64,000 bases of DNA, from contig JAUVNS010000001.1 of NCBI GenBank assembly GCA_030599585.1, forward strand, positions 32,001 through 96,000, written 5' to 3'. Of the stretch, positions 452-14,616 are shown piece after piece. A program made the position numbers and the translations under genes. Within the stretch, counting starts at the first letter, position 1; every line of letters begins with the position of its first letter. Origin of the DNA: Promethearchaeota archaeon (GTDB lineage Archaea; Asgardarchaeota; Lokiarchaeia; Sigyniarchaeales; SOKP01). The notes under the pieces were generated by a model. That model was not told the DNA's origin. It searched no databases and worked only from the letters and a program-made list of their open reading frames with translations.

Positions 452-1798
452 TTAATAAAATTCACAATCTTCAAGTATCATAGACAAATCTATGACCGGT
501 AAGTCAGGTTTGTTTCGACTGGCAGCTAAATGTAAATTATTTTTACAAAAGACACAAGCGCTAACCAAAACTTCAGCATCTGTTTCGATTGCTTCTTTTA
601 AGCGATCTTCGTTAATGTCCTCCCAGCAAGCTACAGTTTCATCTAAACGGTTATTAGCAATATCAAGTGAGATTTCTCCGTATAAGGCTCTTACTCCGCC
701 TCCAGCACCGCAGCATAACGACATTTCTCTGTTATGTTTCATCTCGATAAACTTAATGCCTTCAATCATGTTCATTAGTTCTCTTGGCTCATCGTAAACT
801 CCACAATATCGTCCTAAGTGGCATGGATCGTGATATGTGATAACCATAGGGTCTTCTTTCGTACGTTTCTTGTATCTTATTTTAAGACCTTTTTGTTTTA
901 CGATTTTAGGAACAAATTGAACTAAGTGAGAAAGCTCAAACCCAAGATCTCCGCCAGCAAATTTAGTATATTCTGTTGTAAATGTAGAAAAACAGCCTGC
1001 ACAAGAAAAGACGAGTTCGTTTACTCCTAATTTACGGACCATGTCAAGGTTATATTCAACTAATTGAAGAGCTTCGTCTTCTAACCCAGTTCGGAACAGA
1101 ACCGACCCACAGCAGTATTCATCTGGAAAGATTAAGAACTTAACGCCTAGTTTTTCTAAAATTCGACTAGTTGCTGTGCTTAACTCGTTATTACGATACG
1201 AACTTGTACAACCAACAAAATATCCTACTAAATGTTCTTCAATATTGCTCGGCTTTAATTCTCCAGATTTTATTGCTTTAGTAAGGTCAGCACCACGCTG
1301 ATAAGCGTCGTATCCTTCTTTACAGGTTTCTGAATCACACCATTTATATCTATCAGTTCCATCTTCGAGAAACGGATTTTTATTTGTCAGTATCGAGTTT
1401 TTTAAGATTCCTAGTTTTTCAGGTAGAACACCTTTACGCACTGCAGTTCTTCTATAATTTTGAAAAACTTCTAATGTATCAATTCCAACAGGGCAAACGG
1501 TTCTACAATGGCCACAAAGCATACACTGATAGAGGGCAGGAATGATTTCTTCTTTATCGAAATCAAGTTCTTTTTTAGATAAGGCTCTGAGGATTCTATT
1601 GCGTCCACCAGCATAGTCTCTTTCAGAAAAGGTTATACTGTATACTCTACAAACGTTACGGCAATAACCGCATTGTATGCATCGCTCGAAATCGTTGTCT
1701 GTTTTATGTCCCGGATCAACTAAATTCTCTTGGTCTGGTGCAAAAAATCCTGAGACTGGAGAGCCAGTTGTTATTACATTTTTAATTTTTTCATTCAT
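452..1798 (-). CDS. Fe-S oxidoreductase, 2x[4Fe-4S] plus two CCG domains (GlcF/HdrD-like)
   Basis: CxxCxxCxxxC twice; YFVGC, CCGS, YHDPCHLGR, CCGAGGG, CVFC motifs. Confidence 0.9.
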   Translation of the reverse strand: MNEKIKNVITTGSPVSGFFAPDQENLVDPGHKTDNDFERCIQCGYCRNVCRVYSITFSERDYAGGRNRILRALSKKELDFDKEEIIPALYQCMLCGHCRTVCPVGIDTLEVFQNYRRTAVRKGVLPEKLGILKNSILTNKNPFLEDGTDRYKWCDSETCKEGYDAYQRGADLTKAIKSGELKPSNIEEHLVGYFVGCTSSYRNNELSTATSRILEKLGVKFLIFPDEYCCGSVLFRTGLEDEALQLVEYNLDMVRKLGVNELVFSCAGCFSTFTTEYTKFAGGDLGFELSHLVQFVPKIVKQKGLKIRYKKRTKEDPMVITYHDPCHLGRYCGVYDEPRELMNMIEGIKFIEMKHNREMSLCCGAGGGVRALYGEISLDIANNRLDETVACWEDINEDRLKEAIETDAEVLVSACVFCKNNLHLAASRNKPDLPVIDLSMILEDCEFY

Positions 1799-1827: not shown

Positions 1828-3303
1828 TTAGGCTGCTTTGTAGAGTCGTTTTGCTATCCAAAATAGGAGTCCAACGCGCCAAGTTCTCATCTTTGCTTTC
1901 ACCAATCTATAATTGTTAACGAGATCTTTGGGATCAATTTTGTTTTTCATAGCTAGTAAGGCTGCTGCTTTTTCAGGATGGAATTTTAAAAAGTAGAACG
2001 TATTTACTACACCTAAGGTGTATAAACTGTCTCCATTTTCGTAGTTGTTTATAGTAATATCGTTAAAAACTGCTTTAATTCCGAAAAATTCTCGAGAGTC
2101 CTTAATATCCGAAAGACCGAACAATTTGATTCTGTTTCCTCCTATGGCTCCAGACATCATATAGAATGCTTTTCGATACTTCTTGCCAGCTTTTTCAAGA
2201 TAAAAGTTGTAAAAATCTTCAACTCTATTATCCGATACATAATATTCTTGAAATATCAGATTTTCACACCATCGGCCTAAGTTTAATTCAGTATCAGCCA
2301 TGTCTCTCCATTTTTCTTTTAGATACCATTCCTCAACGCTAAGTCCGTCTAACTTTGAAGCTGTTTCTTTCGCAAATGAAACGCTTTGAGAGGTCACACT
2401 AGAGTCGTCAGAATATACAGCATAGACAAAAAAGCCTCGTGATGGATAAGTCCAGTGAGCATATTTCTCAAATTCTTTATCTGAGAGCGAAAGGAAAAGT
2501 GGTTTACTTGCCTCGTTATTTTTTAATGTTCGAAAGAACTCACTTGCCATTTTAAATGTATTAAAACTATATCCTACCATTTCTAGTGAAGTTTTAAGAG
2601 AAGTAATTTCTAATTCTACTTCAGCAACGGCGCCAAATATCCCAAAAGAGCCTATAATATCATCAAGTGATAAATCTCCTTGAGAATCTTTAGTGATTGT
2701 TTCAGTAGAACCATCAGGTTTCACAAAAACAACAGATCGTAATACATCTTGCATAACTCCATTTTTCAAGACACCAACTCCTACTTTACCAGAAGTAACA
2801 ACAAATCCGCTAACACAACTAGATTTATAGCTAGTAGGGTAGCATTTTGGAGCTAATCCGTACTCGAGAAGTTCTTCCATGAGTTTTTGCCAAGTAATTC
2901 CAGCGTCGCATTTGACAGTCATGTTTTCCTTGTCAATGTTGTGAACTTTGTTCATTCGTCTTAGATCAATTATTACACCACCATTAGTAGGTGTAGAAGA
3001 AGAATAACACGAAGTTCCTGCGGCTCGAAGGGTCATAGGCATTGAATATTCATCGCATTTTTGCATTAATTTAGAAAGCTCTTCGGTATTACCAGGACGA
3101 ATTACGTGACTCGCTCGATATTCTGCTTTAAACTTGTAGTGATACTTCGATAACAGCGAAAGATCACCGGAAGTTGCTTCAATCTCGTAGATATCTGTGC
3201 TTACATGTGGTGAGACTATGAATTCTTCTACTTCTTTAGTAAATTTTGTCTTTCCAATTTCTTGGTTTTCATCAATTTTTGCTTCATTCATTTTTTTTTT
3301 CAC
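1828..3303 (-). CDS. FAD-binding oxidoreductase (GlcD / D-lactate dehydrogenase-like, VAO/PCMH fold)
   Basis: P-x-x-x-EELS, RAAGTS, GGVIIDLRRMN, GSFGIFGAV and C-terminal IDPKDLVN motifs. Confidence 0.85.
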   Translation of the reverse strand: MKKKMNEAKIDENQEIGKTKFTKEVEEFIVSPHVSTDIYEIEATSGDLSLLSKYHYKFKAEYRASHVIRPGNTEELSKLMQKCDEYSMPMTLRAAGTSCYSSSTPTNGGVIIDLRRMNKVHNIDKENMTVKCDAGITWQKLMEELLEYGLAPKCYPTSYKSSCVSGFVVTSGKVGVGVLKNGVMQDVLRSVVFVKPDGSTETITKDSQGDLSLDDIIGSFGIFGAVAEVELEITSLKTSLEMVGYSFNTFKMASEFFRTLKNNEASKPLFLSLSDKEFEKYAHWTYPSRGFFVYAVYSDDSSVTSQSVSFAKETASKLDGLSVEEWYLKEKWRDMADTELNLGRWCENLIFQEYYVSDNRVEDFYNFYLEKAGKKYRKAFYMMSGAIGGNRIKLFGLSDIKDSREFFGIKAVFNDITINNYENGDSLYTLGVVNTFYFLKFHPEKAAALLAMKNKIDPKDLVNNYRLVKAKMRTWRVGLLFWIAKRLYKAA

Positions 3304-4017: not shown

Positions 4018-4905
4018 TCACCTAAAAATTACACCTAAGAAGACTAATAAAAACCCAACTAGCATGTAAAGTGAAGCGATCTTGAAGATTAGAAACGTAA
4101 GTTTATTCGTCGGTTTTATCAAACTTTTGATTGATAGAATTATGATAAATAACGACATGACACCCCAGATAATTCTGATAATCGCATTTGCACCTAATAA
4201 TCTCGCAGCTTCGTAAAGCGCTACACTACTAAGAAACGCACCAATAGCTATTACGCGCATAGTCTGGGCTTGTGAACTAACAACAGGCCACATAGGTACC
4301 TTTGCTTTTTTATACCCCTCAAAATTTCTAGGAATTAATGCTATCGTAAGAATATGCACAGGTATCCAAGTAAGAATGAAAATTAGCAATAAAAATCCAA
4401 TCCAATCTAAACTCCCAGTTATTGCGACTCGACCTGCCCAAGCAGGGAGCCCACCGGCTATCCCTCCGAAGATAATACTATATTTAGTTCTTCTTTTTAA
4501 CCAGATGCTATAAATTACCACATCAAAGAAGAATCCAAAAAACACGATTAAAGCGGCTAACCAATTTAGGGTAACAAACGCAAGTAATATTCCTAAAACA
4601 GTGAATATGGTTCCAAATGTAAGCACTGAGGAGGCAGTAACTTTTCCACTAGGTAGGGGTCGATCTTTTGTCCGTTCCATGATTGCGTCGATATCTCTGT
4701 CTATGTACATATTAAGCACCGTAGTTCCCGATACTGCAAGATACAGCGAAATTGCTAAATGGAGTAAATTAAACCAGTTAATTTCTACTGCTAAACTTAC
4801 AGCCGTTATCAAATAAGTAAAAACACCAGTATACACTAAAAGTATTGTCTGTCTCGCTTTAATAAGTTCTCCGAAGAGCGTTAATATATTTTTAAAGTTC
4901 AACAA
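4018..4905 (-). CDS. ctaB: Protoheme IX farnesyltransferase (heme O synthase), UbiA family
   Basis: NMYIDRDIDAIMERTKDRPLPSG, YSIWLKRRT, GGIAGGLP, WIPVH, YKKAKVPMWPVV. Confidence 0.93.
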   Translation of the reverse strand: MLNFKNILTLFGELIKARQTILLVYTGVFTYLITAVSLAVEINWFNLLHLAISLYLAVSGTTVLNMYIDRDIDAIMERTKDRPLPSGKVTASSVLTFGTIFTVLGILLAFVTLNWLAALIVFFGFFFDVVIYSIWLKRRTKYSIIFGGIAGGLPAWAGRVAITGSLDWIGFLLLIFILTWIPVHILTIALIPRNFEGYKKAKVPMWPVVSSQAQTMRVIAIGAFLSSVALYEAARLLGANAIIRIIWGVMSLFIIILSIKSLIKPTNKLTFLIFKIASLYMLVGFLLVFLGVIFR

Positions 4906-5081: not shown

Positions 5082-6608
5082 TTAAGCGGTTTTTTCAGTA
5101 AGAATCAGAGGTTTAGATACTCCGTGAGCCGCTGGTGGTAAAGTTTTTACATTTTTAGCAAGCGCGTATAATCCGAGTACAAAGCCTGTTAAGAGAACCC
5201 ATACTCCTATAAATGTTACGGTTCGAAAGCCGTCGAAGTTTTCCAATCCTTGAAAACGTATCATATGCAACATTGCGAAAGGAAATGTTAAATTAACTCC
5301 GATAAAAAATGTCCAACCCAGAATTTGTTTTAACCTACCCTTAACCTTGAAAAAGTCAATAGCGTGTATCATCAGAGCCACAGCGATCATCACTGCCAAT
5401 TGGTGCCAGTGAGCAACATTAAAGTTATACTCCAGCGTTACCATAATAGGTAATCTATAATATTCATCTACTAAAAGACCAACATAGATTTGAGGAAAAA
5501 CTAAAATTTCTGCGATAAAAAGCAGGTAATAATACGACAACTTTACAGGTTCCTTAAACAATGCTTTAAGCTTTTGCCCACGCGATGCATCCCGGAAATC
5601 GTCTCCCATATGATCCTTAATAGTGTTCTTCATGCCAATAATTGACATAACAACCGTTACGAGGATCAATATACCTGCTCCGACCCATATTATGTAATGA
5701 TTTAGGACCCAAGCACCCCACGATAATGTTATAACGCCAATCGGAGTAATTACCAAGAGTCTAGTATAAAGTTTACCTGACATTTTACTCGTACGGAAGG
5801 CGACCAACATAACCATAGCGGCTGATTGAGCAAGCTGTATGTGTAGGTGACCAACTATCATGTCTTGGACGATATCGTGATGCCCGCCAAATGTTATACC
5901 TTTTCTGATGATGGCTTCTGCTAAGAAGGCAATAGGTTCCCGACCTAATCCCCAAATAGTACCAGTAAAGTTTTCAATAGCGGACAGAGCGCCATATATT
6001 GCCGAAACCATAATACATATAGCGAGGACACAAAGATTGAAGTATTCCAAATTTAACCCGCGAAAAGTCGATCCATCGGGGTTATGTTTTGGAAATCTAT
6101 TTTTCACGGGCCAAGCTGCTATAAGAAATACTAATCCACCGATAAAACACAATAGCATCCCGAACGTGAAAAGTTCGTGGAAAATTCTTAGACGTGTATA
6201 GGCAAAAATCATTCCGTTTATACCTACAAGAAACGCACTAGGTATAAAGAGAATTTTTAAGGTTGGTAACCACCTCTTACGGACTTCGTAGTGTTCTAAT
6301 ATCCAGAATGTGTTCGCGATAAAAAAGGGTAGCGCTAACGAGTGATATATCATGACAAGTCGAGCTGTCCTTGACATCACAGTGTCGTTAAGCATCCAAG
6401 GCCAGATCGGCTCTCCACCAATTAAAACGGTTAAGGGTTCAGAGAATGTCATATAGAATAATACTTGTATAAAGACAAAAGCGAACAACATAAAATGTAT
6501 CTTCTTAAAATTCGTTTCTGATTCAACTTTCATATCCTGTGTTTCCATTGACTTTTCTACACCAGTTTCCATTGGGACTGTTTCTGTTATTTCTGTTATT
6601 TTTAACAC
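5082..6608 (-). CDS. ~12-TM protein with heme-copper oxidase subunit I-like His pattern (divergent)
   Basis: Three 4-helix repeats carrying RLVMIYHS, MIVGHLH and FNVAHWH; adjacent to ctaB. The start may be a downstream ATG. Confidence 0.55.
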   Translation of the reverse strand: MLKITEITETVPMETGVEKSMETQDMKVESETNFKKIHFMLFAFVFIQVLFYMTFSEPLTVLIGGEPIWPWMLNDTVMSRTARLVMIYHSLALPFFIANTFWILEHYEVRKRWLPTLKILFIPSAFLVGINGMIFAYTRLRIFHELFTFGMLLCFIGGLVFLIAAWPVKNRFPKHNPDGSTFRGLNLEYFNLCVLAICIMVSAIYGALSAIENFTGTIWGLGREPIAFLAEAIIRKGITFGGHHDIVQDMIVGHLHIQLAQSAAMVMLVAFRTSKMSGKLYTRLLVITPIGVITLSWGAWVLNHYIIWVGAGILILVTVVMSIIGMKNTIKDHMGDDFRDASRGQKLKALFKEPVKLSYYYLLFIAEILVFPQIYVGLLVDEYYRLPIMVTLEYNFNVAHWHQLAVMIAVALMIHAIDFFKVKGRLKQILGWTFFIGVNLTFPFAMLHMIRFQGLENFDGFRTVTFIGVWVLLTGFVLGLYALAKNVKTLPPAAHGVSKPLILTEKTA

Positions 6609-6933: not shown

Positions 6934-7746
6934 TTAGTCTTCTAATTCAATACCTGCAATATCAAAGCCCCATCTTTTAGGAACGAATGTTCCCCAAGCA
7001 AAGGCTGCAATAGCTAACGTTAAAGCAAATGGAAATACTGATAGGACTATAAATAGATATCCGACTAATATGTAATTACCCGTATCTACTACCATCGTTT
7101 GAGCATCGTATGGGAATGAATACCCGAACAAAGCTGCAAGACCTATAAGAAGTCCTACTAGACTCATTATAGCACCTGCTGCTACGAATGCCCATGTGGA
7201 AGGTCCGTTTTCTTCCTTCGTTGTTATTGGCAGATAAATTATTAAAGCTGCGCTGGGAATGTGTAGAGCCAATACTAGAATCGTAGTAACAATACCGGGA
7301 ATCACTTGAAAACCGTATGTATAAGGAACGGCAATATTTGGATTTTTAAGAACCATTATTGCTACAGACATACAAACAACATACAGTAATAGGAGATTTC
7401 CGATCCTTGTCTTTTCAGGCTTAACATTTTTCCATAGACCTACCGCAAACAGCCCTAATGTTAAAGCTGAAAAACCGGCAGGTATCGCAGTTAGAAAATA
7501 CTCGAAATCACCACCCGGAATAGCTAAGTGGAGATTTATCCAGAGCAAAGCAAATGAAATACCCCAAAGGAAGTGTTCTTGTTTCCTACTATTGAAATAG
7601 GAAGCCAACAGAAATAATGCGAAAATTATTGAGATAATAGCTCCAATCCACATTACGACTTCAATCATTTGACTATTAGGATATCCTTCAAAGCCGAACT
7701 CCCAAGGACCCGGAGGGGGACCACTAGGCGGTTGAAATAACACCAT
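6934..7746 (-). CDS. ~7-TM membrane protein of unknown function
   Basis: 270-aa ORF with about seven hydrophobic helices and a Pro-rich N-terminus. Confidence 0.7.
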   Translation of the reverse strand: MVLFQPPSGPPPGPWEFGFEGYPNSQMIEVVMWIGAIISIIFALFLLASYFNSRKQEHFLWGISFALLWINLHLAIPGGDFEYFLTAIPAGFSALTLGLFAVGLWKNVKPEKTRIGNLLLLYVVCMSVAIMVLKNPNIAVPYTYGFQVIPGIVTTILVLALHIPSAALIIYLPITTKEENGPSTWAFVAAGAIMSLVGLLIGLAALFGYSFPYDAQTMVVDTGNYILVGYLFIVLSVFPFALTLAIAAFAWGTFVPKRWGFDIAGIELED

Positions 7747-7769: not shown

Positions 7770-7922
7770 TTTTTTTTATTTAATTTTATATTTATTTAAA
7801 AAAGTTTGTTTTGTAATTTTTTTTTAAATAATAGTAATAAATAGAAATGCTCTAGTATAAAAAGGTTTGTGATTGAAACCACATATGAATTATGATTCAA
7901 AATAAGAATAAATCTTTAAATA
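7770..7922 (-). repeat. Left arm of ~153-bp inverted repeat (upstream region of 6934..7746)
   Basis: Reverse complement of 8581..8733 with about 4 mismatches by manual alignment. Confidence 0.95.
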
Positions 7923-8173
7923 ATAGTTGTCGACACGGGGTAGATGTTCATCTTCCATCTGTAATCTAACGACGCTGCTGGTAAAGCCCGACCGAACGAA
8001 CAACGATAACACAACAATCCATGATATTACAAACACTGTTACTAGTTAGGCGAATTTTGTGTGTTTTTGAGGTTATTTTTTATTCACTATTTATTTTTTT
8101 TAACTTCGTTTTATATTTTACCTTAATTTTTACATATAAAAGTCTGTTTATATTGATTTTTTTTTCTTTAGTC

Positions 8174-8398: not shown

Positions 8399-8580
8399 AC
8401 TTGGTTATTATCCCTAGACCAATCATCAAAGAATTAAACTTCTATAGATTTACACTTAAGTATCACATTTACAATCAAATGCAATGGGTTGGAATCGTTT
8501 TTGTCCCAACTCAACTGATCATCGTAGGAGAATCGTCTATTTTAGCTAATTTCTCGAATTTAACGGATGAAGTATTTTAC

Positions 8581-8733
8581 TATTTAAAGACTGATTCATA
8601 TTTTGAATCATAATTCATATGTGGTTTCAATCACAAACCTTTTTATACTAGAGCATTTCTATTTATTACTATTATTTAAAAAAAAATTACAAAACAAACT
8701 TTTTTAAATAAATATAAAATCAAATAAAAAAAA
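8581..8733 (+). repeat. Right arm of ~153-bp inverted repeat (upstream region of 8742..9503)
   Basis: Matches the reverse complement of 7770..7922; contains TTTTTATA (8640-8647) and two small dyads. Confidence 0.95.
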
Positions 8734-8741
8734 ACAAATAT

Positions 8742-9503
8742 GTGGTGTTTAAAACGCGGATAAAACGATCTGAATTTATATTTAATATTATAGTGTTAGC
8801 TCTTTTTGCGATTGTAGCGAGTACTCAAATACTCAGTGCTTATGGGGCTATATGTGTAGTGTGGGATTTACCCCGTGGTCCAGGATTTCCTGTACCCAAT
8901 AGCACGTGGGGTAATGATACAGTCAGAGCTTTAAGTTGGCTATATCAACCATCGAATGTAGTAACCTGGATTGTAGCATTTGCTTACGGCGTTTTGATGT
9001 ACTTATACTTAACGAAAATGCCTTGGAAACGTTTCTTTTTAATTTCTATGGCTGTCGCCTTCGCAGGATTCATTACTGGACTTCTCCCTGCACTTGCCTC
9101 AGATACTTCTGGATTTACTGTTCCGTTTGAGGGAATTGGTTCCCCGAATTGGGGGCGAACAATAGGAAATGCAATAATGATGGTTCTACTTGTTGTGATG
9201 AACTTTGTACCAAGATTAAATGTAGCGACCAAAAAATTTATTGAAGAGCGTAGCATAGCTGGACAATATGTAAAACAAATGATTTTAATATCCTTGTTTT
9301 TCTTCTGGTTAGCAGCGACTTCATTCCTCGGGACACAGTTCATGAGAGATGCTCACGTAGTAGACGGAATTAATATTTGGACTACTGTTGACTTCCAATT
9401 TGCTGGTGGAGTAATTACGACAATCATTGGTGCTTCAATAATGTCAACCGCTTTGATTTACAATCAAATTCGACCATCCTCAGCGCTTATAACAACTAAG
9501 TAA
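8742..9503 (+). CDS. Polytopic membrane protein of unknown function
   Basis: 253 aa, about 6 hydrophobic segments, followed by a T-tract. Confidence 0.7.
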   Translation: MVFKTRIKRSEFIFNIIVLALFAIVASTQILSAYGAICVVWDLPRGPGFPVPNSTWGNDTVRALSWLYQPSNVVTWIVAFAYGVLMYLYLTKMPWKRFFLISMAVAFAGFITGLLPALASDTSGFTVPFEGIGSPNWGRTIGNAIMMVLLVVMNFVPRLNVATKKFIEERSIAGQYVKQMILISLFFFWLAATSFLGTQFMRDAHVVDGINIWTTVDFQFAGGVITTIIGASIMSTALIYNQIRPSSALITTK

Positions 9504-10290: not shown

Positions 10291-10977
10291 TTAAAGTTTG
10301 TGTTTACCTTCTAATTTTGGTACGTTTTTTTGTCCTAACAGTGGTAACGTGTAAAGTAATACAATTACGACTATCGTCGAGATAGTTGCCGGCATAGCTG
10401 CTTCAGCGAAGGTTAGATGTGGGTTATAGTATGGTAATCCAACGTAATAATGCTCTGTTAGCGAGCCCCCGAGGGAACATTTAACATCTACAGTAATATT
10501 AGTCCGACCTACACCTAGAAATGGTACATATCTTTCGAAGTTTTCGTCATATGGTGGATTATCTATCACATCTCCGGTTTTCTGGAGTCCTGGTAAAGGA
10601 AGTCTATAAATAGCTATTGTGTGAGAGACTGTGATGGGAGTCACATGAGTTGGTTGTTCAGAGTAGGTGAATGTATAATTAGGCGCTACTGTAGGAAGTA
10701 TGGCAATAGCATAATTATCCTGATCATCGAAATGATATGTGTGTTCTATATGACGTTGCCATACTTGTGTGACATTAACCCACACATCTATTTCGTATAT
10801 ATAGTGGACCGTAGGATCAGAAATTCCGTGCGTAAGTCTAATGGCAAGTTCTCCATCTGCTACAGAGTATTCTAAATCAATATTTATAGGCGGATGCGCT
10901 CTCGCGTTAAGAACGCTCATCGTAGCACCGAGAAGCAAAAAAACAGACAAAACGTAAAATATTTTTTTTTTAGACAT
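10291..10977 (-). CDS. Secreted, C-terminally anchored putative metal-binding protein
   Basis: Signal peptide ending ARA then HPP; THG, VHYI, CSLGG motifs; C-terminal TM helix. Confidence 0.6.
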   Translation of the reverse strand: MSKKKIFYVLSVFLLLGATMSVLNARAHPPINIDLEYSVADGELAIRLTHGISDPTVHYIYEIDVWVNVTQVWQRHIEHTYHFDDQDNYAIAILPTVAPNYTFTYSEQPTHVTPITVSHTIAIYRLPLPGLQKTGDVIDNPPYDENFERYVPFLGVGRTNITVDVKCSLGGSLTEHYYVGLPYYNPHLTFAEAAMPATISTIVVIVLLYTLPLLGQKNVPKLEGKHKL

Positions 10978-11253: not shown

Positions 11254-12495
11254 TTAATCTTTTTTAAGATATTTTAAGAGAACTACGAGGACGATAGCTA
11301 TGATTAAGGGAACGATGATTCCTAATGCCAAAGTTAATTGGGCGTTAAAAATTTCGTAAACATGAGTCGAAATTGGCGCTCCAATGGCTACTCCAGTAAC
11401 TATCAGAGCATAGAATGCTCCTGTAGCTAAACCGCTCTCGGAACCCTTGGTTTTCTCTTTAACAGCACCTGCTGAAGATGGAAAAATCAATCCATGCCCT
11501 AGACCAAGGAAGACCATACCAATCATAGGTATATACATAGGTATTGGGATTTCGGGGGAAATTATGAAAACTCCAAATGCAGATGCTATCAACAATAATC
11601 CTATTAACATTACTTTGGTATAACCTATTTTGTCGCTCAATATACCTGCTGGATAATGAATTATTATCGAAAAAATAACCATTATACTAAGTATCATTCC
11701 CGTTTGACCAGCAGTATAGGCTGCAGACTCCAGTATTACCGTATAAGCCGCTGTAACAATTCCCATGTTAAACATCATTGCTAACATCGAAAAATAAGGA
11801 CTTATCATGGATTTTCTAATGACGATTTCTCTAAATTTTTTGATTTCCTTGCGGAGGTTTAATTTCTCTTTAGACGGGTGATAAATCTCAGGAAGAAGTA
11901 GCGATGTAAATGACATAACGAATAATATAATTGCTATTATGAAAAATAAATTGCTTGCTCCAATTATTTGAGCAACTAACCCACCTAACATGAACCCTAC
12001 CAAATTTGAAAATCCGATGGACATTCCATATAGTGCCATCCCCCTTCCGCCCCTTTTCTGGGAAGTAGCGTCTGATATATAAGACATTGTAGCAGGCCCT
12101 CCAAAACCTCCTCCTATTCCGTGAATTATCCTTCCAAATAAAAGGAAAAAAGGGTCTTGCGCTAACGCATATAGAAGCATTGATACACCATCTAAAAATA
12201 TCCCGAAAGCTATTAATCTTTTTCTGCCGAATCTGTCCACTAACCTTCCAAAAATTAAATTTGAGGGAATATGGACCATGGAGTAAATTCCTACAATAAA
12301 TCCCATGAATAATAACGAGGCTCCTAAATCTAACGAATACGTGGCAATTATCGGAATTGCTGCGTTGCTGTCAAAATTGACCAGAAATGATAATGTAAGT
12401 GCTAAAAAAATATGTTTTTTTTCAATTATCAGATTTTTATGGCTTTTCTCTTCTGTAACACCTAAAGAATCTTGTGAAATCTGTTTTCTCACCAA
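11254..12495 (-). CDS. MFS transporter
   Basis: GRLVDRFGRKR motif A, second repeat GILSDKIG, 12 TM. Confidence 0.92.
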   Translation of the reverse strand: MVRKQISQDSLGVTEEKSHKNLIIEKKHIFLALTLSFLVNFDSNAAIPIIATYSLDLGASLLFMGFIVGIYSMVHIPSNLIFGRLVDRFGRKRLIAFGIFLDGVSMLLYALAQDPFFLLFGRIIHGIGGGFGGPATMSYISDATSQKRGGRGMALYGMSIGFSNLVGFMLGGLVAQIIGASNLFFIIAIILFVMSFTSLLLPEIYHPSKEKLNLRKEIKKFREIVIRKSMISPYFSMLAMMFNMGIVTAAYTVILESAAYTAGQTGMILSIMVIFSIIIHYPAGILSDKIGYTKVMLIGLLLIASAFGVFIISPEIPIPMYIPMIGMVFLGLGHGLIFPSSAGAVKEKTKGSESGLATGAFYALIVTGVAIGAPISTHVYEIFNAQLTLALGIIVPLIIAIVLVVLLKYLKKD

Positions 12496-12607: not shown

Positions 12608-12949
12608 ATGAACATGACTCCTTCTAAAAATCGCCTAGAACAAGAATACGAAACAATTAAAACTATGATTCAAATGTATTGTAAAAAGGTTCATGACTGT
12701 GAGGAAGGATTATGTCAAGAATGCTCTGATCTTCTCAAATACGCTGAAGAACGATTGAATAATTGTAAATTTGGTGAAGATAAACCCCCATGTGATGCGT
12801 GCTCAATTCATTGTTATAAACCTGACATGAGGGAGAAAGTCCGAGAAGCGATGCGTTATGCCGGGCCACGGATGATTTACACGCATCCTATTATGGGATT
12901 TAGGCACTTGTTTAAAAAAATGAAAAAAAAAGAAAATTTAGATAAATAA
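12608..12949 (+). CDS. YgbA / nitrous oxide-stimulated promoter family Cys-rich protein
   Basis: MIQMYCKKVH, LCQEC, CKFGEDKPPCDACSIHCYKP, MRYAGPRM..HP. Confidence 0.85.
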   Translation: MNMTPSKNRLEQEYETIKTMIQMYCKKVHDCEEGLCQECSDLLKYAEERLNNCKFGEDKPPCDACSIHCYKPDMREKVREAMRYAGPRMIYTHPIMGFRHLFKKMKKKENLDK

Positions 12950-12973: not shown

Positions 12974-13795
12974 TTAATTATAAATTATTTTTGTCAGTTC
13001 ACTTTCTTGTCCTTTTAGATGGTTCTTGAGAACGCCCTTCTTGTTCATTGAGAGGATAACTACTTCAAGACCTTCTTGTATTTGATCTTTAATTGAGATT
13101 AGTGAAAACAATTTACCCTGCATCTTGCCAGAAGCATCTTTGCTAGTTTCTTCCTCCGTCTTGCCAAATAATTGTTCAATCTCATTGATATTTATTTCCC
13201 TAAGCAATTGTGCGTGCTCTTCCAATTTTGGGTCTTTATCGAACACGCCAGATACATCTGTTGCAAATATTAGTTGTTTAGCGCGTAATACACGTGAAAG
13301 AACGACAGCTAATTGATCTCCACTACAAACGCTAAAACCCATGGTCTTATCGTACATCATATCTCCTCCTATTAGTGGAACCATCCCTAAAGATAAAAAG
13401 CCTTTTAAAGAGTTAAATGTATAATCAGCTATCGCCATCTTATCACCTACAATTATCGAAGAGGCGTGCATCAAGTTAATAGGAACCCCTTCCTCAATAA
13501 ATGTGATCGCAATCGTTTTTCGAAGCTCATTCACGATTTGCTGCGTTTTTGACATAGAGATTAATTGATCTTTGTTTCTAAACCCCTTATGAAGGTTGTA
13601 TTTTAACACTGGAGGATGGCCGAAAGAACCTACTCCGTGGACAATCACAAGATTTTTGATTAATCCTAAATCAATACATTCTTTTATTTCCGCGGCAACC
13701 GCCTTTATAACACTTTCTCTAAGTTTGTACGGGGTTGATTTGTCCGTAAACAATGAACCGCCAAGCTTTAAAACAATTAAGTCTTCTGCCGTCAT
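12974..13795 (-). CDS. ipk: Isopentenyl phosphate kinase (amino-acid kinase family)
   Basis: LKLGGSLFTDK, VHGVGSFGH (IPK-specific His), SGDQL, TDVSGV, DASGKMQGK. Confidence 0.88.
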   Translation of the reverse strand: MTAEDLIVLKLGGSLFTDKSTPYKLRESVIKAVAAEIKECIDLGLIKNLVIVHGVGSFGHPPVLKYNLHKGFRNKDQLISMSKTQQIVNELRKTIAITFIEEGVPINLMHASSIIVGDKMAIADYTFNSLKGFLSLGMVPLIGGDMMYDKTMGFSVCSGDQLAVVLSRVLRAKQLIFATDVSGVFDKDPKLEEHAQLLREININEIEQLFGKTEEETSKDASGKMQGKLFSLISIKDQIQEGLEVVILSMNKKGVLKNHLKGQESELTKIIYN

Positions 13796-13815
13796 TTGTA
13801 TTCCTAGATATTATA

Positions 13816-14616
13816 TTAGAAAATAGTGGGATAAGGCCAGAAGGCTGGAACTGCAAATTCAAGTATCAAGGTCGTGATTATGACCGCCACAAAAATTGTG
13901 AAATTATCTGAATTCTTAGGTGATATCGCTTCTACTATCGTAGCAATTATACTAACAACTATTATCGGCAAAATCAGAGTAGCTATATCAAAACTCGGAA
14001 CTTCTAGAGAAAAAATTAAGACGAGAATAGAGCTTACTAATATCGATCCAACCAACATGCCTATACTTCCTATAAAGGTTTTTTCGCTCCCCTTGATTCC
14101 AATCTTTTTCCTCCCAAATTTACGCCCTATTATATCAGCTAACCCATCTCCACCGGAAACACATCCAATTATAAGTAGAGCAGTAGGATTAGCGTTACTT
14201 ATACCGGTAGACGGTACGTAAAACCAGAAATATGTCATTAACACCATTACAATTGAATAGTAGAGCGTTCCTTGTAGAAGTTCTCGAGGGTCTCCCGATC
14301 TCGACATTGATGCCACAAAACTTTCGTTCTTTATAACACCAATACCGATAGTTATGAATTGTAATACGAATAACAACGGCACTATTACAGCTATATAATG
14401 ACTAACAATCTCACCTGAAAAGAGCATCCATGTAACTACGAATACGGGACCTACTAAAATATGCACAAGTTTCCTCGTAATGATCGGTGAAACTTTTCCC
14501 TTTTTCTGAATATAAGCGACAATCTGAACTATAGCTAATAGTATTACAATAGATATGACAGTCGCCACTAAATCCCAAACAAAAACCAAATTACTTCCAA
14601 ACGGATTAAATACCAT
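13816..14616 (-). CDS. Phytol/farnesol/dolichol kinase family (CTP-dependent)
   Basis: RKLVHI, MSRSGDPRELLQGTLYY, GDGLADIIGRKFG, KTFIGS, DNFT. Confidence 0.88.
   Translation of the reverse strand: MVFNPFGSNLVFVWDLVATVISIVILLAIVQIVAYIQKKGKVSPIITRKLVHILVGPVFVVTWMLFSGEIVSHYIAVIVPLLFVLQFITIGIGVIKNESFVASMSRSGDPRELLQGTLYYSIVMVLMTYFWFYVPSTGISNANPTALLIIGCVSGGDGLADIIGRKFGRKKIGIKGSEKTFIGSIGMLVGSILVSSILVLIFSLEVPSFDIATLILPIIVVSIIATIVEAISPKNSDNFTIFVAVIITTLILEFAVPAFWPYPTIF

Follow-up and report, generated by a model that had tools for sequence, protein, structure and literature searches.

A deeply divergent haem-copper oxidase-like protein encoded next to a haem O synthase in Asgard archaea

Reduction of O2 in the haem-copper oxidase (HCO) superfamily requires a His-Tyr cofactor and a three-His CuB site (Murali et al. 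2024, PMC11214002), and the same work covers the newer nitric oxide reductase (NOR) families eNOR, sNOR, gNOR, and nNOR. In Escherichia coli bo3 oxidase (NC_000913), the haem O synthase gene cyoE shares an operon with the gene for subunit I, CyoB, which uses haem O and has the histidines H333/H334, the Tyr of an HPEVY motif, D- and K-channels, and subunits II to IV as partners. Outside Heimdallarchaeia, Asgard archaea are regarded as having no terminal oxidases, and the handling of oxygen by the archaeal ancestor of eukaryotes is debated (10.1101/2025.02.26.640444). In this study, we characterized an HCO-like protein (hereafter P0001) encoded in a 64,000-nt stretch of DNA from a Loki-type Asgard archaeon (hereafter the window); all coordinates are positions in the window, and residue numbers refer to the 508-amino acid P0001. 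Literature searches found no description of the P0001 family, which is not reported among the NOR families surveyed in PMC11214002 and is distinct from the distant HCO homologue of Meheust et al. 2022 (PMC9258230), a family of Halobacteria.

P0001 is encoded at 5082 to 6608 on the minus strand from a GTG start codon; the open reading frame given in an initial annotation of the window, which had been made from the DNA letters, is real, but its strand needed correcting. All the motifs quoted there (RLVMIYHS, RIFHE, GGHHD, MIVGHLH, VLNHY, and FNVAHWH) are found in the protein. P0001 carries no family annotation: searches against Pfam at E values up to 1 returned zero families, with COX1 (PF00115), NnrS (PF05940), and CtaA (PF02628) all unmatched, NCBIfam gave zero matches, and a PDB sequence-profile search found nothing. 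The AlphaFold2 model of P0001 (pLDDT 81.6, pTM 0.82) shows 12 long helices, in line with the approximately 12 transmembrane (TM) helices counted earlier, and all 12 superpose on HCO subunit I. In a Foldseek search with this model, the top 16 PDB hits were HCO or NOR subunit I, each with a probability of 1.00, and VIA-align gave HCO/NOR subunit I for 50 of the 50 best structural matches. The best of these was the cbb3 subunit CcoN (8smr_E), with a Z score of 23.1 and an rmsd of 3.7 Å over 398 residues, and Z scores for aa3 oxidases and NorB were 20 to 21 overall (about 21 for aa3, 21.2 for NorB 4xyd_A, and 20.2 for NorB 3o0r_B). Profile comparison by hhalign gave the same relationship, at 96.9% probability and an E value of 2.5e-10 over 466 columns between a 41-sequence alignment of the P0001 family and a CyoB-led HCO alignment, and at an E value of 8.4e-5 between a narrower 48-sequence alignment and canonical subunit I. 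The HCO subunit I fold, for which the initial annotation had proposed a structural comparison with COX1, NorB, and NnrS, is thus borne out by the model and the two structural searches; COX1- and NorB-type proteins fill all 50 best matches, but NnrS is not among them. A complex prediction of P0001 (residues 31 to 490) with three haems, Fe, and the neighboring protein P3 gave ipSAE values of 0.01 and 0.00, which are neutral on binding.

The closest described structures, the CcoN subunits of cbb3 oxidases (8smr_E, 9g6b_A, 3mk7_D, and 6xkw_n; Z 22.4 to 23.1, rmsd 3.7 to 3.9 Å, 389 to 399 residues), share with P0001 the minimal 12-TM fold, a His in helix II, an HxH in helix X, and a His in helix VI, the CcoN-type His facing the active site. 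By contrast, P0001 is 9 to 11% identical to them and unmatched by PF00115, has a single His where they have the His-His pair of helix VII and no active-site Tyr, and is encoded in a genomic context without the cytochrome c partners CcoO and CcoP. It also has the residues H144, H254, and E231, which are invariant additions relative to canonical HCOs, and a dedicated haem O synthase. Other polytopic, His-rich proteins tied to NO stress or prenylated haem are the haem- and copper-containing 12-TM NO-stress protein NnrS and CtaA, but P0001 differs from both in matching neither Pfam model and in having structural matches exclusively to HCO/NOR subunit I among the best 50.

Conservation was examined in a narrow set of 48 P0001 homologues with identities down to 42% and in a wide set of 41 family sequences with identities down to about 24%. 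H89, H144, H244, H254, H256, H304, H400, and H402 are all invariant in the narrow set. In the wide set, H89, H144, H254, and H400 are present in 41 of 41 sequences, H402 in 40, and H256 and H304 in 39 each, so that seven histidines pass the check on homologues that had been proposed for them; in these alignments, the conservation is far beyond chance. The GGHHD motif (H243/H244) that had also been pointed out is present, but it is conserved only among closer relatives, and the conservation of H244 does not extend to the wider family. The earlier view that the haem ligands are retained agrees with the hhalign alignments, in which the histidines of P0001 map to homologous helix II and helix X positions and CyoB H106, H284, H419, H421, and R481 correspond to P0001 H89, H256, H400, H402, and R451, respectively. 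H89, in the helix II motif RLVMIYHS (6339 to 6362, minus strand, as are all P0001 motifs given below), where R83 and Y88 are also invariant, is predicted to bind the low-spin haem axially. The helix X motif FNVAHWH contains H400-W-H402 (5403 to 5411), which aligns with the CyoB ligands of the high-spin haem (H419) and the low-spin haem (H421). By alignment, P0001 therefore keeps H89 and H402, the predicted bis-His pair of the low-spin haem, as well as H400, the predicted proximal His of the high-spin haem, and it is this homology mapping that suggests a convergence of the ligands on metal sites.

The helix VI motif MIVGHLH contains H254-L-H256 (5841 to 5849), an HxH that proved to be family-specific, as had been noted from the sequence; H256 aligns with the CuB histidine H284 of CyoB, and H254 aligns with CyoB W282 and, within P0001, with H400. 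In helix VII, the canonical His-His is replaced by N303-H304 (VLNHY, 5697 to 5702). The pair as such is gone, as claimed previously, but the site is not wholly lost, since H304 is nearly invariant (NHY against the canonical HHF); of the three CuB/FeB histidines, H256 and H304 therefore remain. H304 lies one residue off CyoB H334 in the profile alignment, and its register relative to the canonical His-His is uncertain because the region is aligned with low confidence and has variable insertions. Position 303 is N, D, A, S, M, or P in the family; gNOR, like P0001, breaks the three-His rule at the active-site metal, but has a conserved Asp (PMC11214002) whereas position 303 is variable. The absence of the H-x3-Y cross-link was likewise borne out by the family alignment: the helix VI position of the cross-linked Tyr is a gap or Q258/M, within a four-residue gap at the PEVY of CyoB, and at the helix VII position used in the C family, Y305, which comes directly after H304, varies in the wider family. 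NorB (cNOR 4xyd_A and 3o0r_B) and the newer NORs have the fold in common with P0001, and they too are without a cross-linked Tyr. However, the FeB glutamate of cNOR and qNOR, four residues past the helix VI His, corresponds to a nearly invariant Ala in the P0001 family (A260), and no NorC or cupredoxin subunit was found. In one paralogue clade (L051:3935-5551, P0143), H256 and H304 are lost together, whereas H89, H144, H254, H400, and H402 are kept; this joint loss is a single evolutionary event. An alternative register, with H254 as the CuB histidine and H256 at the E286 position, was ranked lower because both hhalign runs set H256 on H284 and the paralogue clade drops H256 with H304 while keeping H254.

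Directly downstream of P0001 on the same strand, as had been noted, lies the gene for P0002 (4018 to 4905, minus strand), a haem O synthase (CtaB/CyoE-type UbiA prenyltransferase) with the Asp-rich motif NMYIDRDID. P0002 scored 214.3 bits against TIGR01473, for which the cut-off is 210.3 bits, and the next best family type reached about 50 bits. CtaBs linked to HCO-like genes scored 194 to 225 bits on this model, and some therefore fall just under the cut-off. The co-occurrence of the two genes, which had been put forward as a check, is close to complete: of 17 distinct loci that could be assessed, 16 have a haem O synthase gene directly after the HCO-like gene, and all 22 Asgard genomes in which the first profile found the HCO-like gene, within a 151-genome sample, have a CtaB of at least 190 bits. 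Genomes carrying COX1 as well as the HCO-like gene have separate ctaB copies, and the linked CtaBs, Asgard and bacterial, form one clade (100/97 support) apart from COX1-adjacent CtaBs. The HCO-like protein and a haem O synthase lineage of its own are thus inherited together. In this respect, the locus resembles the E. coli cyo operon, but the partner subunits of CyoB have no counterpart here, PF00116 being absent.

Further along the minus strand, the locus encodes P4 (3308 to 3916), a 202-amino acid, 6-TM protein with invariant H79, H110, H144, and H147, which occurs in Loki/Thor-type clusters only and is a candidate haem b membrane relay or assembly factor. Its assignment as DUF420/CtaM or cytochrome b561 was not adopted, since the Atlas leads to DUF420 and cytochrome b561 are weak (below 0.9) and DUF420 is unmatched at the locus. 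Then follow an FAD-binding flavoprotein (GlcD/D-lactate-dehydrogenase-like; 1828 to 3303, minus strand; PF01565, E 6.7e-31), which is conserved in Loki/Thor clusters, and an HdrD/GlcF-like iron-sulfur protein with two 4Fe-4S motifs and two CCG domains (452 to 1798, minus strand; PF02754 and PF13183), whose TfrB/LdhH/GlpC/GlcF-like NCBIfam matches are all under cut-off. The flavoprotein, iron-sulfur protein, and P4 genes are absent from Heimdall/Hod-type and bacterial clusters. On the other side, the recurrent upstream neighbor P3 (6934 to 7746, minus strand) is a 270-amino acid, 7-TM protein with invariant H58 and W61 (model pLDDT 77.5); it was not assigned as a COX3-like subunit, the model being a generic 7-TM bundle with a best Z score of 15, to GPCRs, which is in the range of any helical bundle. 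The 6-TM family protein orf253 (8742 to 9503, plus strand) recurs in HCO-like clusters, one of them bacterial. Another recurrent gene of Loki/Thor loci, located upstream of the HCO-like gene, is orf228 (10,291 to 10,977, minus strand), whose product is a His-rich exported domain anchored by a TM segment at its C terminus. A superoxide-reductase-like assignment of orf228 was not adopted, the Desulfoferrodoxin lead of 0.75 (Atlas), with no Pfam hit, being a lead and not a finding. No relationship among P3, orf253, orf228, and P4 was detected by hhalign. A gene of the YgbA_NO family ("nitrous oxide-stimulated promoter" family; 12,608 to 12,949, plus strand; PF11756, E 3.6e-42; NF007714, 130 bits against a cut-off of 88) lies divergent from an MFS transporter gene (11,254 to 12,495), and this pair also flanks the HCO-like cluster on a Thor-type contig (L051). 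In bacteria, a Crp/FNR-type regulator is found upstream of an operon with the HCO-like gene, and bacterial HCO-like proteins are linked to an FGE-like domain, either by coupling or by fusion; a lipobox and an extra TM helix predict that this domain lies on the outer side of the membrane.

The host genome is 100% complete by markers, and searches of it found no COX1 (PF00115), COX2 (PF00116), CtaA (PF02628), cytochrome bd, ALAD, or PBG deaminase, in agreement with the expectation that the host has no canonical oxidase. As for a secondary redox subunit, neither PF00116 in the genome nor cupredoxin or cytochrome c domains among the cluster neighbors were found. The protein had been placed in a lineage considered anaerobic, but the family is not confined there and spans several Asgard families and bacteria. 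Among the 151 sampled Asgard genomes, 25 carry the HCO-like protein (22 found with the first profile and three more with a wider one), and nine carry canonical COX1. The gene accompanies 25 of the 31 Asgard genomes with a strong CtaB and thus accounts for the majority of haem O synthase genes in the phylum, and it is patchy within the genus of the host (four of 12 sampled relatives). ALAD is missing from nearly all Asgard genomes with the HCO-like gene, and the system would therefore run on scavenged haem.

Taken together, the sequence comparisons and the structural model favor, with a probability of approximately 60%, P0001 as a subunit of the catalytic type from a deeply divergent and so far undescribed HCO branch that would depend on haem O and reduce NO or scavenge O2. 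Because P0001 is accompanied by a haem O synthase of its own in a genome without an ordinary oxidase or haem synthesis, anaerobes that are supposed to be oxidase-free probably have a haem O enzyme that has so far gone undescribed. The haem, metal content, and activity that we infer for P0001 would fit together as follows. The host, presumably unable to make tetrapyrroles, would scavenge haem b, which the adjacent CtaB would farnesylate to haem O for insertion into P0001, with cyoABCDE as the precedent. Because the cross-linked Tyr is missing and the metal site has two histidines, four-electron O2 reduction of the canonical kind is unlikely; a haem/non-haem-metal center is more likely to carry out two-electron chemistry, either NO reduction or slow O2 scavenging, as detoxification in an anaerobe. 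In Loki/Thor clusters, electrons could pass from the 2-hydroxyacid-type flavoprotein through the HdrD-like iron-sulfur protein and the four-His membrane protein P4 to the HCO-like protein. The YgbA_NO neighbor, the Crp/FNR-type regulator, and the FGE coupling are hints, from neighboring genes, of a role in NO or O2 metabolism.

The initial annotation had also proposed three repeats of four helices, and these are detectable at the sequence level: hhalign aligned helices V to VIII (residues 185 to 340) with helices IX to XII (residues 352 to 490) of P0001 at 96.7% probability and an E value of 3.3e-10, whereas reversed or column-shuffled controls gave E values of 0.06 to 0.67, and repeat 2 against repeat 3 of canonical HCOs gave 0.1. 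In this alignment, H254/H256 fall on H400/H402, and E231/R235 fall on D381/R385. Accordingly placed are E231 and R235 (FLAExxxR, 5904 to 5918), in the outer-face loop preceding helix VI, as the repeat-2 counterpart of D381 and R385 preceding helix X, and H144-E145 (RIFHE, 6174 to 6179), at the start of helix IV, of which H144 is the repeat-1 counterpart of H304. H254, H144, E231, and R235 in helices III to VI would thus repeat what helices VII to X use for the high-spin haem, and are predicted to form a third cofactor pocket, probably with a third haem, at the site of the D-channel pore of canonical enzymes. Such a cofactor could act as the electron entry point, since no CuA or cytochrome c subunit was found. 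From the repeat homology and the conservation pattern, we tentatively suggest that P0001 may be a nearly three-fold-symmetric, three-haem relative of HCOs that keeps an ancestral triplicated subunit I, with the helix III-VI pore holding an H254/H144-ligated cofactor, framed by E231/R235 in exact repetition of the H400 and D381/R385 geometry, in place of subunit II as the electron entry; we hold this as a possibility with odds well short of even.

Three further readings are less probable. P0001 could be a true low-level O2 reductase, an O2-scavenging terminal oxidase with haem O and a non-standard distal site that serves survival of oxygen traces. The use of terminal oxidases for aerotolerance by strict anaerobes is accepted (10.1101/2025.02.26.640444), the nearest structures of P0001 are high-affinity cbb3 oxidases, haem O has a classic role as the high-spin cofactor in O2 reduction (cyo operon), and the exported orf228 has its weak superoxide-reductase-like lead; however, with no conserved Tyr at the helix VI and VII positions, and with two of the three CuB histidines that are needed together with the His-Tyr cofactor (PMC11214002), we consider a true oxidase unlikely. 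A different role for haem O, as a substrate rather than a cofactor, would make P0001 a protein that modifies, stores, or delivers prenylated haem, for example, an alternative haem A-type synthase. The near-obligate adjacency to ctaB and the co-inheritance with one CtaB clade fit this role, as do hosts that are haem auxotrophs needing to manage scavenged haem and the lack of a recognizable electron-donor subunit in most lineages, but ctaB within an oxidase operon is a normal arrangement (cyoE). Moreover, the fold and ligand positions are those of an HCO catalytic subunit, including a bis-His low-spin haem for electron transfer, PF02628 is unmatched in P0001 and in the genome, and the dehydrogenase module of Loki/Thor clusters is sensible only for electron flow, which leaves haem O handling improbable.

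Comparably improbable is a non-catalytic, multi-haem membrane cytochrome that relays electrons to an outer-face metal enzyme domain, FGE-like in bacteria and orf228 in Loki/Thor clusters. Such a relay would suit P0137, in which the HCO-like protein is fused to an FGE-sulfatase domain via an extra 13th TM helix, the locus L053, where a lipoprotein FGE gene lies between the HCO-like gene and ctaB, the presence of orf228 upstream in five loci, and the paralogue clade, which keeps all the putative haem ligands without H256 and H304. In the main family, however, 39 of 41 sequences retain H256 and H304, which points to a functioning non-haem metal site, and the outer-face partners vary by lineage, with none within 8 kb at many loci.

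With P0001 as a catalytic-type subunit, the HCO superfamily would gain a branch that has a two-His metal site and repeats whose symmetry exceeds that of any described family, and the family would bear on the evolution of O2 and NO reductases. If the three-haem reading is true, the family would show the enzyme in a state that predates CuB, the tyrosine cofactor, and proton pumping, and Asgard anaerobes would gain a self-contained, haem O-based NO/O2-reducing system that uses scavenged haem. The P0001 family may also bear on eukaryogenesis, as an oxidase-fold protein that is commoner than COX1 in the Asgard sample (25 versus 9 of 151 genomes).

The gene at 5082–6608 on the minus strand is a single ORF with a GTG start, and its 508-residue product (hereafter P0001) had no match in Pfam or NCBIfam at E values up to 1 and none among PDB entries in a sequence-profile search. 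All the motifs quoted in the initial annotation, which had proposed a haem-copper oxidase (HCO) fold, were found in the translation. An AlphaFold2 model built with 48 homologues as input (pLDDT 81.6, pTM 0.82) contained 12 long helices, and the best 16 Foldseek matches were all HCO or NOR subunit I. In VIA-align, the model superposed on cbb3 CcoN (8smr_E) with a Z score of 23.1 and an rmsd of 3.7 Å over 398 residues, on NorB (4xyd_A) with a Z score of 21.2, and on the aa3, bo3, and ba3 enzymes with Z scores of about 20–21; the best 50 rows were all subunit I chains, spanning P0001 residues of about 28–498. Judged from this model, the likeness to subunit I is far above the level for unrelated helical bundles, which bears out the proposed fold. 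Profile comparison with a canonical HCO alignment of E. coli CyoB and twelve Asgard COX1 genes gave an E value of 8.4e-5 for a 48-sequence alignment of the P0001 family, and 96.9% probability and an E value of 2.5e-10 over 466 columns for a wider 41-sequence alignment (to about 24% identity). The N-terminal 30 residues (6537–6608, minus strand) were poorly modelled. M21-E-T-Q is (nearly) invariant in the family and forms the very first residues of some homologues, so translation may really begin at the ATG at 6548 and not at the GTG at 6608, although 'LKIExE' upstream of M21 is conserved as well.

Approximately 100 homologues were found, every one labelled hypothetical, and full-text searches of the literature found no description of the family. 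Those with a named source belong to Loki-, Thor-, Hod-, and Heimdall-type Asgard archaea; the closest are 'Promethearchaeota archaeon' (87% identity) and 'Lokiarchaeota archaeon' (77%), names that suggest a Loki-type Asgard archaeon as the source of the window. An exhaustive search across 1.8 billion representatives yielded 74 clusters only, which marks the family as small and divergent. In the ESM Atlas, a search by shape matched P0001 to an unnamed 508-aa cluster with mostly bacterial (Chloroflexota) labels (TM 0.82) and to a COX1-FixO cluster (TM 0.67). Three otherwise full-length homologue matches each carry a single in-frame stop, namely, TGA in L014 (G141:C43), TAG in L024 (G145:C21), and TGA in L081 (G072:C45).

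The residue mapping from P0001 to CyoB was identical in the 48- and 41-sequence alignments. P0001 H89 and H402 correspond to the low-spin haem ligands H106 and H421 of CyoB, H400 to the high-spin haem ligand H419, H256 to the CuB ligand H284 in helix VI, and R451 to R481, which interacts with the haem propionates. The canonical 'PEVY' motif, which contains the cross-link tyrosine, aligns to a gap in the P0001 family. Opposite the canonical 'WLHHF' lies 'VLNHY', in which H304 alone is conserved; it is one residue out of register with the canonical histidine in a stretch aligned with low confidence, and the preceding position is variable (N, D, A, S, M, or P). Thus, of the active site first proposed, the retained haem ligands, the missing tyrosine, and a separate HxH in helix VI hold, but the helix VII site, described as absent, is halved, as H304 is kept. 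Among the 41 sequences, R83, Y88, H89, H144, E231, H254, R385, and H400 occur without exception, H402 in 40, and H256 and H304 in 39 each; a second alignment confirmed these counts. The two sequences without H256 also lack H304. They form a paralogue clade (L051:3935–5551, on a Thor-type metagenome contig, and P0143, at L055:2460–3938) with H256 replaced by R and H304 by N, and keep every other histidine (H89, H144, H254, H400, and H402). Being a single evolutionary event, the joint loss lends only modest support to a common site for both residues. The paralogue gene follows an MFS gene and precedes P3-like and orf253-like genes (described below), and one contig of this clade has no adjacent ctaB.

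The family alignment was then cut into three four-helix units, which were aligned pairwise. Unit 2 (residues 185–340) matched unit 3 (352–490) with 96.7% probability and an E value of 3.3e-10, and unit 1 matched unit 3 with an E value of 1.4e-6, well beyond the reversed or column-shuffled controls (E 0.06–0.67), in agreement with the three four-helix repeats initially described. In canonical HCOs, units 1 and 3 are detectably similar too (E 1.3e-6), whereas units 2 and 3 gave an E value of only 0.1; by this sequence measure, the P0001 family is a more symmetric subunit I than the canonical HCOs. The unit 2/unit 3 alignment pairs H254 with H400, H256 with H402, E231 with D381, and R235 with R385, and the unit 1/unit 2 alignment pairs H144 with H304. 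In the bovine and Paracoccus structures, one helix X histidine points into the pore of helices VII–X and the next into the neighbouring pore; the pore of helices III–VI is the aromatic-plugged D-channel in canonical enzymes. If the geometry is shared with the helix X histidines, H254 should face the helices III–VI pore, in which H144 (helix IV) also lies, and from this placement we infer a putative third cofactor pocket, most simply for a third haem.

Directly downstream on the same strand, as initially noted, lies the gene for haem O synthase (CtaB; 4018–4905, minus strand; TIGR01473 score 214.3 bits, cut-off 210.3). Among 19 fetched loci, 17 of which were assessable and distinct, ctaB immediately follows the HCO-like gene in 16, in addition to the window itself; in the exception, G089, it sits on a different contig. 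A maximum likelihood tree placed the HCO-linked CtaBs, Asgard and bacterial, in one clade (100/97 support) separate from the COX1-adjacent CtaBs, and genomes with both COX1 and the HCO-like gene carry separate ctaB copies. Since the HCO-linked CtaBs form their own clade, the HCO-like gene and ctaB represent an old co-inherited module. One bacterial contig has the order Crp/FNR regulator, HCO-like gene, FGE-sulfatase-type lipoprotein (PF03781, lipobox LAAC; L053:2879–3793), ctaB, and orf253-like gene. In another bacterial relative, P0137 (L056:8001–10358), an FGE-like domain (PF03781) is fused at the C-terminus via an extra 13th TM helix, with a predicted outer-face topology, and a UbiA gene lies 3.7 kb upstream. 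A gene for an isopentenyl phosphate kinase (NF040647, 180.7 bits) and one for a 266-aa protein without annotation lie near the cluster in the window (12974–14616, minus strand) and in two genus relatives; in G089 (L074:31–3460), both immediately adjoin the unlinked ctaB as well as an orf253-like gene. The kinase may thus connect CtaB to a prenyl supply.

Of 151 Asgard genomes sampled, 9 contained canonical COX1 and 31 a CtaB of at least 190 bits; the HCO-like gene was found in 22 with the first profile, a wider profile adding 3 genomes, all of one family. The expected co-occurrence was borne out, as all 22 genomes possess a strong CtaB. Of the 31 strong-CtaB genomes, 25 have the HCO-like gene, 3 have COX1 alone, and 3 have neither, two of the last being 76–88% complete. 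The host genome (4.85 Mb, 100% complete by markers, 8.9% contamination) gave no match to COX1, COX2, CtaA, cytochrome bd subunit I, ALAD, or PBG deaminase in genome-wide profile searches. Of the 151 genomes, just 7 yielded an ALAD match, and none was found in one family whose members carry canonical COX1; haem auxotrophy and haem scavenging thus look widespread in the phylum, which does not speak against haem proteins.

Further downstream on the minus strand are P4 (3308–3916), a membrane protein of 202 aa in which four histidines are invariant, an FAD-binding GlcD-like flavoprotein (1828–3303), and an HdrD/GlcF-like Fe-S/CCG protein (452–1798), all three limited to Loki/Thor-type clusters among the compared loci. 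P3, a 7-TM protein (6934–7746, minus strand), recurs near the HCO-like/ctaB pair in 11 loci, and the divergent orf253, a 6-TM protein (8742–9503, plus strand), in 9, one of them bacterial. Directly upstream of each lies one arm of a 156-nt inverted repeat (7770–7925 and 8578–8733; 97% complementary, 652-nt spacer), and these near-identical upstream regions indicate co-regulation or an invertible segment. An exported His-rich protein, orf228 (10291–10977, minus strand), recurs in 5 loci; it has a signal peptide ending in A-R-A followed by H-P-P, a C-terminal TM anchor, invariant H28, H50, H58, Y59, and C167, and no Pfam match. In the Atlas, its one lead, to Desulfoferrodoxin, is weak (0.75), and orf228 may be a mononuclear metal protein of the cell surface. 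A YgbA_NO family gene (12608–12949, plus strand; PF11756, E 3.6e-42) and a divergent MFS transporter gene (11254–12495, minus strand) border the cluster in the window as well as in the Thor-type contig L051, a possible link to nitrosative stress.

These results show that P0001 belongs to the HCO superfamily as a deeply divergent member: its haem ligands are intact, its distal metal site is reduced, and it lacks both the tyrosine cofactor and the classical partner subunits. Its evolution is tied to that of its own haem O synthase. In this superfamily, O2 reduction needs the His-Tyr cofactor and a three-histidine CuB site, NO reduction is supported by several different active sites, and gNOR was the first family described with an active-site histidine replaced (Murali et al. 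2024, PMC11214002). Because of these active-site requirements, two-electron chemistry is favoured for P0001, and a true O2-scavenging oxidase is unlikely. Less probable still, and to a similar degree, are an enzyme that handles haem O, the product of the neighbouring synthase, and a cytochrome without catalysis of its own that passes electrons to a partner enzyme at the outer face, where the fused FGE-like domain is predicted to lie; all three rank below two-electron NO or O2 chemistry. In the Loki and Thor types, a 2-hydroxyacid-type dehydrogenase would supply the electrons, and the HdrD-like protein and P4 would carry them on to P0001, for which we favour a putative protective function, with two-electron chemistry serving NO reduction or slow O2 scavenging.
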